Source of the DNA: Candidatus Sacchlamyda saccharinae
Lineage (GTDB): Bacteria > Chlamydiota > Chlamydiia > Chlamydiales > Rhabdochlamydiaceae
Assembly (NCBI GenBank): GCA_030408505.1
Contig: JAUHQI010000002.1
Span: 34,674 to 98,673 of the forward strand
Length of the DNA: 64,000 nucleotides
Reading direction: 5' to 3'
Shown in pieces: positions 46,457 through 48,823 of the stretch. The position numbers were made by a program, and so were the translations under genes. The notes beneath the pieces are model-generated. The model was not told where the DNA came from. It made no database searches and saw only the letters and a list, made by a program, of their open reading frames with translations. Numbering within the stretch: the first letter of the stretch is position 1; the number at the start of each line of letters is the position of its first letter.

Positions 46457-47302
46457 ATGATTTACCCAGACGAAAATCAGACCTCTGAGGCGCTCGCAGA
46501 GCACTATAACAGCCTCGATAAATATTATCGAAAACTCTGGGGCGAGCATCTCCACCACGGATACTTTCAAAAGGGTACTGAGACAGTTGAGCAAGCCACA
46601 GAAGCCCTCATCAATCTCGTAGTACAAGCTGGGGAAATCAAAGACAGCTCCAAAGTACTTGATGTAGGATGCGGCTACGGGGCTACGGCCCGCTTTTTGG
46701 CCCATGGAGTGGGCGCTATCGTCACAGCTCTTACGATCTCTAAATCTCAGTGGCAGTATGCACGATCCCACGATCCCGAATCCACCAACCCTCGATATAT
46801 TTTAGGAGACTTTCTCCACCACACCATCCCAGAACAATTCTTTGATGTGATCATCTCTATCGAGACCTCTGAACACATGGTAGAAAAGGAAAAATACTTC
46901 GCAGAAGTCGCTCGCCTACTTAAACCAGGAGGGCGCTTTGTCACTTGCGCTTGCCTTGCAAAGGAGGACCCCACCTCCTGGCAAGTCAAACATCTACTAG
47001 AGCCGATCTGCAGAGAGGGGCGCATTCCCAGCCTAGGCTCCGAGACCGAATACCGGACCATGATCGAAGAAGCGGGCTTAAAAGATGTAGAATTTCATGA
47101 TCTCTCAAAAAATGTAAAAAAAACTTGGTCTATCTGCGCCATGCGCACAAGCAGAGCCTTCCTCTTCGACAAACACGTCCGTAAAATGCTCCTTGATAAA
47201 GGTTTTTCTGAAAGAATTTTTGCTAAAACCCTCTTCCGCATTCTTACCGCCTACAACACAAAAGCCATGCGCTATGGGCTTTTCTCCGCAACAAAGCAGT
47301 AG
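46457..47302 (+). CDS. Class I SAM-dependent methyltransferase
   Basis: Motif I VLDVGCGYGATARFLA and post-I/II blocks (LKPGGRFV). 281 aa. Confidence 0.8.
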   Translation: MIYPDENQTSEALAEHYNSLDKYYRKLWGEHLHHGYFQKGTETVEQATEALINLVVQAGEIKDSSKVLDVGCGYGATARFLAHGVGAIVTALTISKSQWQYARSHDPESTNPRYILGDFLHHTIPEQFFDVIISIETSEHMVEKEKYFAEVARLLKPGGRFVTCACLAKEDPTSWQVKHLLEPICREGRIPSLGSETEYRTMIEEAGLKDVEFHDLSKNVKKTWSICAMRTSRAFLFDKHVRKMLLDKGFSERIFAKTLFRILTAYNTKAMRYGLFSATKQ

Positions 47303-47306
47303 GAAA

Positions 47307-47888
47307 TTAAGATTTAACGGCCTTTAAAAAATCTTGGAATCCAGACATTGCACCTTGATTTGCAGCCCATTTTTTTACATCTGAAAGGAGGACTTTCTCC
47401 TTATTATTCTTGTAAACGAGGATAGCTTGTTCGAGGGCTTGCATATCATTCCAATGGAAATAGCTTGCAAGACGGTCTTTAATACAGTCTTGTGGCGAAA
47501 GAATTTGGACCTTTCCAAGAGCTGTGTCGATCGTATTTATATGTCTTACAGGCTCATTCCCTATAGCTATGGGCGGAGAGACAAATTCAACAAAAAATTG
47601 ACATTTTGGATGAACAAAATATTTTCCCTTTTTCTTGAACCCCAACCCAGCAAGAATTTTTCCAACAAGGTTGGTATCTTCATAAATGACAAAATCTAAA
47701 TCATAGGAAAGATATTGATTTTTAGAGTAAATGCTGACACATGCACCGCCGACTAATGTACAGTAGATCCCCTCTTGCCTTAAAGCAGATGAAATCAACC
47801 CAGACAATTCTGGTATAGATATTTTCGAAAAATCGACCTTAGATGGGTTTTCCTTTTCGCCGAGGTCGCTTACGGATTTTCTTTTCAT
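47307..47888 (-). CDS. Nucleotidyltransferase-fold protein, AbiEii-like (putative toxin)
   Basis: TLVGGACVSIYSKNQYLSYDLDFVI matches the GG..(A/C)...Y......S.D(L/I)DF NTase pattern of AbiEii/DUF1814-type proteins. The start is taken at MKRKSV; the ORF is open to 47930. It overlaps the upstream wHTH gene. Confidence 0.55.
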   Translation of the reverse strand: MKRKSVSDLGEKENPSKVDFSKISIPELSGLISSALRQEGIYCTLVGGACVSIYSKNQYLSYDLDFVIYEDTNLVGKILAGLGFKKKGKYFVHPKCQFFVEFVSPPIAIGNEPVRHINTIDTALGKVQILSPQDCIKDRLASYFHWNDMQALEQAILVYKNNKEKVLLSDVKKWAANQGAMSGFQDFLKAVKS

Positions 47889-48180
47889 AGAACTTTTCTT
47901 TTGTTGGCAAAGGCAGATATTCGTAAGCACGGAAAAGCAAATTTTTCAATTCCTCAAGGAAAGGGTATCTTGGATTGAATTGATAAATTCTTGTCTTTCC
48001 CTGCAAGAAGCTAACTAATACACCTGCGTACTCTAATTTATCTAAGGTATTCTGGAAACCCGATAACGCCGAATCAAAGTTGTTCGACAATCTAGTAGCA
48101 TAACAAGATTCATTATTCAACAGGTAAAACAAAATCTTCTCAATATTCTTATTCCCGAAGAGCCGCTCGAGCATATCCAC
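47839..48180 (-). CDS. Winged-helix DNA-binding protein (putative antitoxin/autoregulator)
   Basis: 113 aa. KILFYLLNNESCYATRLSNNFDSALSGFQNTLDKLEYAGVLVSFLQGKTRIY fits an ArsR/MarR-like wHTH, and the tail is basic. It lies directly upstream of, and overlaps, the NTase gene. Confidence 0.6.
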   Translation of the reverse strand: MDMLERLFGNKNIEKILFYLLNNESCYATRLSNNFDSALSGFQNTLDKLEYAGVLVSFLQGKTRIYQFNPRYPFLEELKNLLFRAYEYLPLPTKEKFYEKKIRKRPRRKGKPI

Positions 48181-48182
48181 CC

Positions 48183-48276
48183 TAATTTATGGTTATATAA
48201 CCACATTATATGGTTAATACTAATTTCACGTCAACCACCATAATTTATGGTTGCATAACCACAAATCATGGTGGTT
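48183..48276. promoter_or_regulatory. Repeat/palindrome operator region in the divergent promoter upstream of the wHTH-NTase pair
   Basis: Two 23-nt direct repeats: TAATTTATGGTTATATAACCACA (48183-48205) and TAATTTATGGTTGCATAACCACA (48241-48263). Each contains a TGGTTnnnnAACCA palindrome. A 9-bp inverted repeat AACCACCAT/ATGGTGGTT (48233-48241 / 48268-48276) brackets the second one. Confidence 0.6.
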
Positions 48277-48313
48277 TTTGCAAAGAAACCAACTATTTTG
48301 TATATAGTGAGTT

Positions 48314-48823
48314 ATGAGCCGAATCTCCCCCAAACCCCTAGATCAGTACCCCTGGACCTTAAGACTTCTTTACTGGTACCAGAGAAGAAAATATGGGGAG
48401 CCCCTTTTGCCCTCTCTTCTTTGGGGCAGGATGCCAAAGCTCCTTATGCTGTTTTTTGGGTTTATCCGCTTTTTTGAGCGGAAAAAATCTCCATTAGATC
48501 CTGTATTGCGAAGCAGGGTCATGTTGCGCGTATCGGAAACCAACAAGTGCCCCTTTTGCATCGACATCAACTCTTCTGCGCTGCAACAAAAAAATGCCGG
48601 CGACCCCAGCGCACGCGAAGAATGCGCTCTCTTCTTTGCAGAAGCAGTGACCGATACCACAAAACAAGTAGATGATGCTTTGTTTGCCTCATTGAATGAA
48701 CACTTTTCTGAGGAAGAAATTGCAGAGCTCGCCGCTCTCATAGCTTTTCAAAACATGTCGAGCAAATTCAACTCTGCTCTGAACGTAGAGCCCCATGGGT
48801 TTTGCAAAATAAATAGGCAATAG
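48314..48823 (+). CDS. Carboxymuconolactone decarboxylase/AhpD-like family protein
   Basis: 169 aa. The CPFC (CxxC) motif sits in an SETNKCPFCIDINS context typical of the AhpD-like core domain. Confidence 0.65.
   Translation: MSRISPKPLDQYPWTLRLLYWYQRRKYGEPLLPSLLWGRMPKLLMLFFGFIRFFERKKSPLDPVLRSRVMLRVSETNKCPFCIDINSSALQQKNAGDPSAREECALFFAEAVTDTTKQVDDALFASLNEHFSEEEIAELAALIAFQNMSSKFNSALNVEPHGFCKINRQ

Follow-up and report, generated by a model that had tools for sequence, protein, structure and literature searches.

A mobile winged-helix and nucleotidyltransferase gene cassette in Candidatus Sacchlamyda saccharinae as a candidate toxin-antitoxin module

Do two overlapping genes of Candidatus Sacchlamyda saccharinae, one for a small winged helix-turn-helix (wHTH) protein and the other for a putative nucleotidyltransferase (NTase), form a toxin-antitoxin module, and if so, to which known systems is it related? 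The genes lie on the minus strand, between positions 47307 and 48174 of a 64,000-nucleotide stretch of contig JAUHQI010000002.1, referred to here as the window. NTase toxins of the AbiE and MenAT types are among the commonest toxin-antitoxin and defense modules; to our knowledge, only DUF1814 proteins of about 290 amino acids and the mycobacterial MenT proteins have been studied so far. A first-pass annotation, made from the letters of the window alone, had proposed a type IV toxin-antitoxin or abortive-infection pair with the layout of AbiE. In this study, comparison across genomes showed a putative repressor whose predicted operator lies over the promoter, a minimal NTase that appears to be catalytically equipped, a mobile cassette, and an NTase that is the component lost or disabled. 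We conclude, with a probability of roughly 0.6, that the cassette is an autonomous, horizontally mobile, self-repressed two-gene module of a toxin-antitoxin-like nature. It has the generic features of such modules, namely, a compact bicistronic operon, apparent translational coupling, a predicted autoregulatory operator, a patchy and mobile distribution that includes plasmids, and insertion/deletion polymorphism, and it is an unstudied cousin of the AbiE and MenAT systems, not a new kind of system.

The features on which this reading depends are the following.

47839-48174, minus strand: wHTH gene, putative repressor and antitoxin (111 amino acids; an alternative GTG at 48180 would give 113)
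47307-47888, minus strand: NTase gene (193 amino acids from the ATG at 47888; the frame is open from 47930, which would give 207)
47839-47888, minus strand: overlap of the two genes (50 nt), encoding the N-terminal extension of the NTase
48179-48214: proximal operator unit, ACC-N9-GGT-N6-ACC-N9-GGT, covering the -10 hexamer, the predicted transcription start, and the Shine-Dalgarno region
48205-48234, minus strand: sigma-70-type promoter (-35 TTGACG at 48234-48229, 18-nt spacer, -10 TATAAT at 48210-48205)
48237-48272: distal operator unit, a second copy with four half-sites, abutting the -35 hexamer

Gene arrangement and operator

As first annotated, a wHTH gene overlaps a gene with an NTase signature, and both reading frames are present on the minus strand; their sizes needed correction. 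The 113-amino-acid frame (47839-48180) exists, but it has 506 homologous clusters and nearly all of the 120 listed homologues are 111 amino acids long; therefore, the true start is probably the ATG at 48174. The NTase is 193 amino acids long from its usable ATG. Its 923 homologous clusters have a typical length of ~177 amino acids, and homology to other NTases starts at about residue 17, exactly at the stop of the wHTH gene. The NTase start and the wHTH stop overlap as NTGA (ATGA, GTGA, or TTGA) in 58 of 80 related loci, and most of the 18 relatives have an ATGA or GTGA junction. In the subclade of the window, the junction ATG is gone and an upstream ATG is used, which results in the 50-nt overlap and an extension of 16 residues that has a low pLDDT and is disordered in the structural model. 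The two nearest NTases (67% and 64% identical) are also 193 amino acids long and have the same N-terminal extension. The wHTH gene lies directly upstream of the NTase gene in all 18 relatives and in 78 of 80 named genomes; the possibility that the two frames are one frameshifted gene was ruled out, since the same two separate genes are found in 78 of the 80 related loci.

Upstream of the wHTH gene, there are two direct repeats of 38 nt (48177-48214 and 48235-48272), which are 82% identical, are 58 nt apart, and each contain TGGTTnnnnAACCA, a sequence that occurs only twice in the window, both times here. The two 23-nt repeats of the first-pass annotation are thus real, each with its palindrome, but they are longer than was described, and the 9-bp inverted repeat is present but forms part of a 20-nt inverted repeat (48233-48252 and 48257-48276) that is 90% complementary. 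The pattern ACC-N9-GGT-N6-ACC-N9-GGT was found in the window only at 48179-48214 and 48237-48272, compared with a shuffle expectation of 0.01. The promoter, which matches 11 of 12 sigma-70 consensus positions, is located between and within the operator units, and the last GGT of the proximal unit falls in the Shine-Dalgarno region, 4 nt before the wHTH ATG. A search of Rfam gave only subthreshold hairpin matches, due to the inverted repeats.

This architecture is conserved. Of 24 loci from relatives and metagenomes, 20 have the exact 9/6/9 unit upstream of the wHTH ATG (shuffled frequency, 2e-5), as do 62 of 80 named-genome loci from at least seven phyla; most of the remainder are one base off. 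In most related loci the unit ends 0 to 6 nt before the wHTH ATG, and in 43 of 74 distinct loci a hexamer with 5 or 6 of the 6 bases of TTGACA lies 16 to 18 nt upstream of a -10-like hexamer inside the central N6. The number of half-sites varies, with six in some loci and eight in the window and in the congener G005, whose locus (L004) has the same two-unit layout.

The bases next to the half-sites suggest how these units are read. The three bases flanking ACC/GGT agree at 2.17 of 3 positions within a locus, compared to 1.11 of 3 between loci, and the half-sites can be paired with particular starts of the recognition helix (residues 37 to 50 in the model): ACCTA with L-[DS]-P-x-Q-K-[TA], ACCAA with L-[YF]-[SG]-x-Q-[RK]-A, and ACCAT with V-N-[RG]-x-Q-Q-Q or, in the clade of the window, with L-S-G-F-Q-N-T. 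Mutual information between protein column and half-site class was highest at residues 38 and 39, followed by residues 42, 43, 37, and 36, in a raw ranking that is confounded by phylogeny and in which other variable columns reach similar values. Therefore, a divergence-controlled test was used, in which sequence pairs were compared at equal divergence elsewhere in the wHTH protein. The six helix positions differed more between half-site classes, with a gap of 0.269; control sets of six variable columns gave a mean of 0.047, a standard deviation of 0.038, and a maximum of 0.118 in 60 draws. These data support the view that the wHTH protein reads the operator directly and so is an autorepressor, and the combination of operator conservation and helix/half-site covariation favors the negatively autoregulatory operator that the first-pass annotation had predicted.

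In the simplest arrangement that we infer, wHTH dimers would occupy the ACC-N9-GGT inverted repeats at a spacing of 21 bp on one face of the DNA. Because the arrays cover the -35 and -10 hexamers, the transcription start, and the ribosome-binding site, the bound protein would shut off its own operon; as a prediction from sequence, this regulatory step is well supported. The family could offer a simple, readable wHTH recognition code that relates residues 38, 39, 42, and 43 to the bases flanking ACC, and its very regular operator grammar and the helix/half-site covariation suit it to studies of how autoregulation is insulated among toxin-antitoxin modules.

The nucleotidyltransferase and its partner

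The NTase signature noted in the first pass (GG...S.DLDF) is present as GG(47-48)...S61-Y-D63-L-D65-F, and its core is invariant among 40 homologues, in which G47, G48, C50, S61, D63, D65, C96, P105-P106, K137-D138-R139, W146, and D148 do not vary and position 102 is always E or D. The GG and D-x-D residues fit Pol-beta motifs I and II (hG[GS] ... [DE]h[DE]h). The catalytic codons are located as follows.

47750-47745, minus strand: G47-G48
47708-47706, minus strand: S61
47702-47700, minus strand: D63
47696-47694, minus strand: D65
47585-47583, minus strand: E102
47480-47478, minus strand: K137

From this motif the protein had been likened to the AbiEii/DUF1814 toxins, but membership in that group failed at the level of sequence families. 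Neither the NTase of the window nor any of the 40 homologues matched PF08843 (AbiEii) at an E value of 1 or lower, and a PF08843 search of the whole genome returned two canonical AbiEii genes, the NTase of the window not being among them; one of the two is at G000:C2:332185-332847. Alignment of the NTase family with 20 chlamydial AbiEii proteins by hhalign gave a probability of 1% (E value, 0.05); this nonsignificant alignment is topologically sensible, in that it pairs the GG...S-x-D-x-D residues and matches K137 with the lysine of the AbiEii "EK" motif. K137-D138-R139 and D148 lie in the C-terminal helices, and K137 may correspond to the toxin-specific Lys of the C-terminal AbiEii motifs III and IV. 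The one Pfam family with recurrent matches is DUF2204 (PF09970), itself uncharacterized, which gave weak matches in 38 of the 40 homologues (best E value, 3.6e-6); the NTase of the window scored 16.7 bits, below the 20.3-bit cutoff, and only over residues 33 to 75, the GG...DxD core. NTP_transf_5 and DUF6036 were other weak Pfam matches among the homologues. NCBIfam gave nothing useful for either protein, no PADLOC model matched the NTase, and neither protein had a significant match among PDB chain sequences. The suggestion that the NTase represents a distinct minimal family is supported.

The AlphaFold2 model (pLDDT, 90.7; pTM, 0.83) bears out an NTase fold, in agreement with the weak Pfam signals. 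The best Foldseek matches were ANT(2'')-Ia, Pb27, MenT1 (with and without MenA1), MenT3/TglT, TM1012, JHP933, and LnuA; those in the PDB (5kqj, 5uvd, 8an5, 4xje, 8xhr, 6y5u, and 4o8s) had E values of 1e-4 to 6e-3 and TM scores of 0.4 to 0.54. Among viral structures, the matches were confined to generic NTase folds (LicD and poly(A) polymerases, for example). MenT1-4, AbiEii, Pb27, ANT(2'')-Ia, and JHP933 have been grouped by Blower and colleagues as the DUF1814 superfamily (bioRxiv 10.64898/2026.01.19.700257). Since the modeled fold and the active-site layout agree, the NTase belongs, as judged from the model, to this structural superfamily and not to the Pfam family PF08843.

The position of Ser61 merits attention. 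In the superfamily, a Ser or Thr two residues before the catalytic Asp (MenT1 T39, MenT3 S78, and AbiEii T65) is autophosphorylated upon antitoxin binding, which inactivates the toxin (bioRxiv 10.64898/2026.01.19.700257). Ser61 is at the phosphoacceptor position, and the S/T-x-D spacing is that of MenT1 T39/D41 and MenT3 S78/D80. A GG...[ST/E]-x-D-[IL]-D motif of the same layout was found in 18 of 20 chlamydial AbiEii proteins, and 17 of these 18 have Ser or Thr at the position equivalent to Ser61. This invariant Ser provides a handle on whether antitoxin-induced autophosphorylation reaches beyond DUF1814.

The wHTH protein matched no Pfam family. It scored 15.6 bits against the ArsR profile NF033788, for which the cutoff is 55 bits, and ArsR proteins in the PDB were matched at an E value of 0.16. 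Its model (pLDDT, 88.4) resembles SqrR, HlyU, CzrA, AntR, and MarR-family repressors at TM scores of about 0.6, and the mean column identity of its alignment is 72%. PADLOC gave no AbiEi match; a weak match of the N terminus to PDC-M05A, from the NTase/HEPN system PDC-M05, covered a generic wHTH stretch only and was set aside. Beyond the wing there are two extra helices and then a disordered basic tail, RKRPRRKGKP(L/I), in which R101, R103, P104, R105, and K109 are invariant. This tail is the most conserved stretch of the protein and is still recognizable in distant plasmid homologues. The ribosome-binding site of the NTase gene is encoded inside the tail region and partly constrains its sequence; the amino acids are invariant even 10 codons upstream of the stop, which argues for a role of the tail at the protein level. 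Toxin binding or contact with an AT-rich minor groove may be that role.

These fold comparisons raise the main rival explanation, that the NTase is a nontoxic enzyme acting on small molecules, like ANT(2'')-Ia or LnuA, and that the wHTH protein is a ligand-responsive repressor of the ArsR/MarR type controlling an inducible detoxification operon. ANT(2'')-Ia heads the Foldseek list and LnuA is also on it, the wHTH fold resembles the sensor repressors SqrR, CzrA, and AntR and the MarR family, and a repressor followed by an enzyme is a common layout of resistance operons. ANT(2'')-Ia, Pb27, and JHP933, which are not toxin-antitoxin proteins and as the top matches had E values of 1.4e-4 to 6e-3 and TM scores of 0.46 to 0.53, share a similar size and a two-lobed NTase architecture with the protein studied here; however, they stand alone, with no coupled wHTH gene or operator, and their substrates are small molecules or not known. 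Furthermore, conservation in the wHTH protein peaks in a disordered basic tail and not in a ligand pocket, and the NTGA overlap in 58 of 80 loci points to translational coupling. We return to this explanation, which we regard as unlikely, once the distribution of the cassette has been described.

The near-invariant tail, the tight coupling of the genes, and a natural fusion protein could also be read as signs that the NTase targets its partner or DNA-bound complexes, with nucleotidylylation of the wHTH tail as one example, and is a regulatory enzyme without a toxin role. The fusion lacks the catalytic residues, decayed loci retain the wHTH gene without the enzyme, and no precedent was found in the literature searched; we consider this explanation highly improbable. 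The fusion, P0261 (279 amino acids, from a metagenome), joins wHTH and NTase in frame and has GG replaced by GP and S-x-D-x-D replaced by SPKLHL, which suggests a catalytically dead and possibly domesticated form. Three distant relatives, P0327, P0383, and P0351 (224 to 255 amino acids), have a lysine-rich, histone H1-like N-terminal extension in place of a separate wHTH protein, and their active-site motifs have changed to G-[RKE] and S-x-E-F.

A second copy of the wHTH domain, 43% identical, is present in the same genome at G000:C4:498119-498406 (L003, 1000-1788, minus strand), where it is fused to a DUF6314 domain in a protein of 262 amino acids. Similar reading frames of 260 to 300 amino acids are present in most genomes of the family, so the fused protein looks like a regulator that is inherited vertically and has the DNA-binding module in common with the cassette.

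Among characterized systems, AbiE of Lactococcus lactis and Streptococcus agalactiae, MenAT3/MenAT4, SanaTA, RlegTA, and SdenTA have the same order, a wHTH regulator followed by a Pol-beta NTase. They share with the cassette negative autoregulation through inverted repeats over the promoter (in the cassette, as predicted from its sequence), the GG...[S/T]-x-D-x-D active-site layout, and a patchy, mobile distribution. Unlike their toxins, which have about 290 amino acids, the cassette NTase has 177 to 193 and no PF08843 match. Its partner has 111 amino acids, whereas AbiEi has ~200, and a disordered basic tail takes the place of the C-terminal AbiEi/COG5340 domain. The operators also differ, with ACC-N9-GGT-N6-ACC-N9-GGT arrays in the cassette and inverted repeats upstream of the transcription start for AbiEi (bioRxiv 10.64898/2026.01.19.700257). 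Of the AbiE-like layout first proposed, the two-gene logic therefore stands, but the partner is a wHTH protein of 111 amino acids with an ArsR-like predicted fold and not AbiEi/COG5340. The label "type IV" is dated, as AbiE is being reclassified as type VII (bioRxiv 10.64898/2026.01.19.700257).

MenAT1 of Mycobacterium tuberculosis (MenA1/MenT1, Rv0078B/Rv0078A; PDB 8AN4 and 8AN5) is closer in toxin size. MenT1, also a minimal NTase toxin with chains of 184 to 195 residues, is the best toxin match by fold (TM score, 0.49 to 0.54); it has a phosphoacceptor two positions ahead of the catalytic Asp and requires a Lys in its C-terminal helical region. In contrast to the wHTH protein, MenA1 is a MazE-like antitoxin of 68 amino acids with no DNA-binding domain, MenAT1 lacks transcriptional autoregulation, and sequence similarity to the cassette is not detectable.

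Gain, spread, and decay of the cassette

The origin of the cassette as an insertion can be read at its own locus, which is arranged as follows.

46457-47302, plus strand: SAM-methyltransferase gene (flank)
47303-48313: whole inserted cassette (1,011 nt), between the methyltransferase stop and the CMD/AhpD-like start
48314-48823, plus strand: CMD/AhpD-like gene (flank)

In the congener G008, only 4 nt separate the stop of the methyltransferase gene from the start of the CMD gene and the site is empty; therefore, 47303-48313 in the window is an inserted cassette. G005 has a full cassette beside the same methyltransferase gene, at 69% nucleotide identity. In G007, these two genes flank a wHTH gene alone (80% identical); no NTase gene is left, and the single remaining operator unit is a hybrid, as would result from recombination between the two units with loss of the promoter. 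For chlamydial genomics, the gain, retention, and decay of a module are thus documented at a single locus within one genus. Between the orthologous G005 locus and the window, the wHTH proteins are 77% identical and the NTases only about 49%; the NTase half of the cassette either evolves much faster or was exchanged.

The same 61 genomes were searched with both proteins to tally decay. Seven loci have an intact 111-amino-acid wHTH gene without an intact NTase gene: the NTase is deleted in G007, reduced to a 30-residue remnant in G008, absent from G030 and from two loci of G036, cut off after SYDLDL in G027, and interrupted by one frameshift in G052. No NTase with an intact active site but without a wHTH gene was found in the 61 genomes. 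In G004, two TAA stops interrupt the wHTH gene, and the NTase frame, which is still open, has the substitutions D65N and C50Y. In three other NTases, whose partners are intact, DxD has become DxN or GxD; the wHTH-NTase fusion described above lacks both GG and DxD, and at one locus (G026:C48) both genes are degraded. Judged from these sequences, the asymmetry is the pattern that a toxin-antitoxin pair would predict.

The family is large and widespread. A profile search with the NTase against 1.84 billion representative proteins, clustered at 50% identity, returned 2,035 representative clusters at an E value of 1e-3 or lower and 1,041 at 1e-10 or lower. The pair is spread over at least seven phyla; close relatives, 43% to 53% identical, come from Chlamydiota, Nitrospirota, Omnitrophota, Verrucomicrobiota, Armatimonadota, Actinomycetota, and Margulisiibacteriota. 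On the tree, at least four label changes are needed for Chlamydiota, and Simkaniaceae fall in at least three clades. The NTase is present in only 22 of 61 relatives and in four of nine genomes of the same genus. Homologues were found on 42 plasmids, 37 of them from Leptospira and the rest from Sulfurimonas, Sulfurospirillum, Bdellovibrio, and Nitratidesulfovibrio. On the Leptospira interrogans plasmid pLiSL32 (L143, 8456-9347), the pair sits between parB and parA, and its operator differs, consisting of two GTATTGACTAAAAAGTAG direct repeats; the pair on a Sulfurimonas paralvinellae plasmid (L144) has the same N6 architecture with AGTT/AACT half-sites. We looked for conserved neighbors or a third component and found none, the flanking genes being different in every locus.

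These observations bear on the explanation of the pair as a detoxification operon. Loss or inactivation is far more frequent for the NTase than for the regulator, and an orphan repressor of a lost resistance gene should not be preferentially retained. Operator specificity diversifies among cassettes, as it does in selfish modules, the Leptospira plasmid copy sits between partition genes, and no transporter or other resistance genes were linked to the pair at the loci examined. A small-molecule NTase would account for the fold; it would leave the asymmetric decay, the coupling, the diversified operators, and the plasmid setting unexplained.

It can also be envisioned that the pair is primarily an abortive-infection system or a defense against mobile elements, triggered by infection, and not an addiction module. 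AbiE, SanaTA, and RlegTA, whose toxins are related NTases, confer protection against phages. On a chlamydial 2-Mb contig (L028, 1224-8558), an island combines a canonical AbiEii gene and a gene for its 205-amino-acid partner, a group II intron reverse transcriptase, HipA/Couple_hipA, and the cassette; one Omnitrophota locus adjoins Fic/HTH and DUF4143 ATPase genes; and the Sulfurimonas plasmid copy adjoins a reverse transcriptase-like gene. Most loci, however, lie amid housekeeping genes. The lack of a PADLOC model for the NTase and the weak, N-terminal match of the wHTH protein to PDC-M05A also speak against a primary role in defense, which we judge to be improbable, and AbiE of Streptococcus agalactiae was itself not protective against 32 coliphages. 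A defensive role is compatible with a mobile toxin-antitoxin-like module, since it concerns the biological role and not the mechanism. That such modules should be unexpected in obligate intracellular bacteria, as had been stated, is contradicted by the presence of canonical AbiEii (PF08843) in 79 of the 121 genomes from the order, frequently as multiple copies per genome, by the 22 of 61 relatives with the pair, and by the reported enrichment of AbiE in Chlamydiota (PMC12988326).

Several points weigh against the toxin-antitoxin-like reading. The fold similarity is moderate (TM scores, 0.45 to 0.54), with ANT(2'')-Ia, a small-molecule NTase, scoring equal to MenT1, and a sequence-level link to AbiEii or MenT was not detected. 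In the Leptospira plasmid homologue, K137 is replaced by R, a search of 50,697 phage records yielded no homologue, and the prevailing setting among housekeeping genes is not that of defense islands. The decay tally is small, and its genomes are related to one another. There is also one counterexample outside the 61-genome set: a metagenome-assembled chlamydial genome from groundwater (L058) lacks the first ~62 wHTH codons and the adjoining part of the promoter and has an intact NTase motif. That NTase may be silent or covered in trans.

Proposed mechanism and flanking signals

Taken with the autorepression described above, the data are consistent with the following scheme. The co-translated enzyme of 177 to 193 amino acids would be a minimal Pol-beta-fold NTase of the structural MenT/AbiEii/ANT(2'') superfamily. 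Comparison of the sequences suggests that it is probably toxic when free and that the wHTH protein is its putative antitoxin as well as its repressor. The free NTase would harm the cell, most likely by extending tRNA 3' ends with nucleotides, an activity known from MenT and AbiEii. The wHTH protein would neutralize it by direct binding, perhaps through the near-invariant basic C-terminal tail or helices 4 and 5, and possibly with induced autophosphorylation of Ser61, which is invariant and lies two residues ahead of the first catalytic Asp. By analogy with the known toxins, tRNA 3' ends as the target, together with neutralization by the basic tail or by induced Ser61 autophosphorylation, is a speculative and tentative proposal. 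More doubtful still is the fuller version of it, also drawn by analogy, in which the family would be an independent MenT/AbiEii-like toxin branch neutralized by an unrelated, ArsR-like antitoxin whose RKRPRRKGKPL tail induces Ser61 autophosphorylation. If this version were true, induced autophosphorylation, the type VII mode of control, would be a property of the toxin fold, independent of the ancestry of the antitoxin.

Our literature searches found no paper on this family, DUF2204 appearing in one unrelated paper, and for NTase toxins with winged-helix partners in Chlamydiota they returned only papers on MenT and AbiE. What emerges is a large, unnamed NTase branch without a Pfam family of its own, with an antitoxin candidate of a different type, that is also carried on plasmids of the cultured genera Leptospira, Sulfurimonas, Sulfurospirillum, and Bdellovibrio.

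Two further observations concern the genes that flank the insertion. On the plus strand after the distal operator unit (48271-48313), TTGCAA and TATATA are separated by 17 nt, the latter ending 7 nt short of the CMD start (48314); they may form a new, nearly leaderless promoter for the displaced CMD gene. At the other end, the plus strand has a terminator-like hairpin followed by a T run (47385-47402), within the span of the 3' end of the oppositely oriented NTase gene; it could end the convergent methyltransferase transcript within the cassette.

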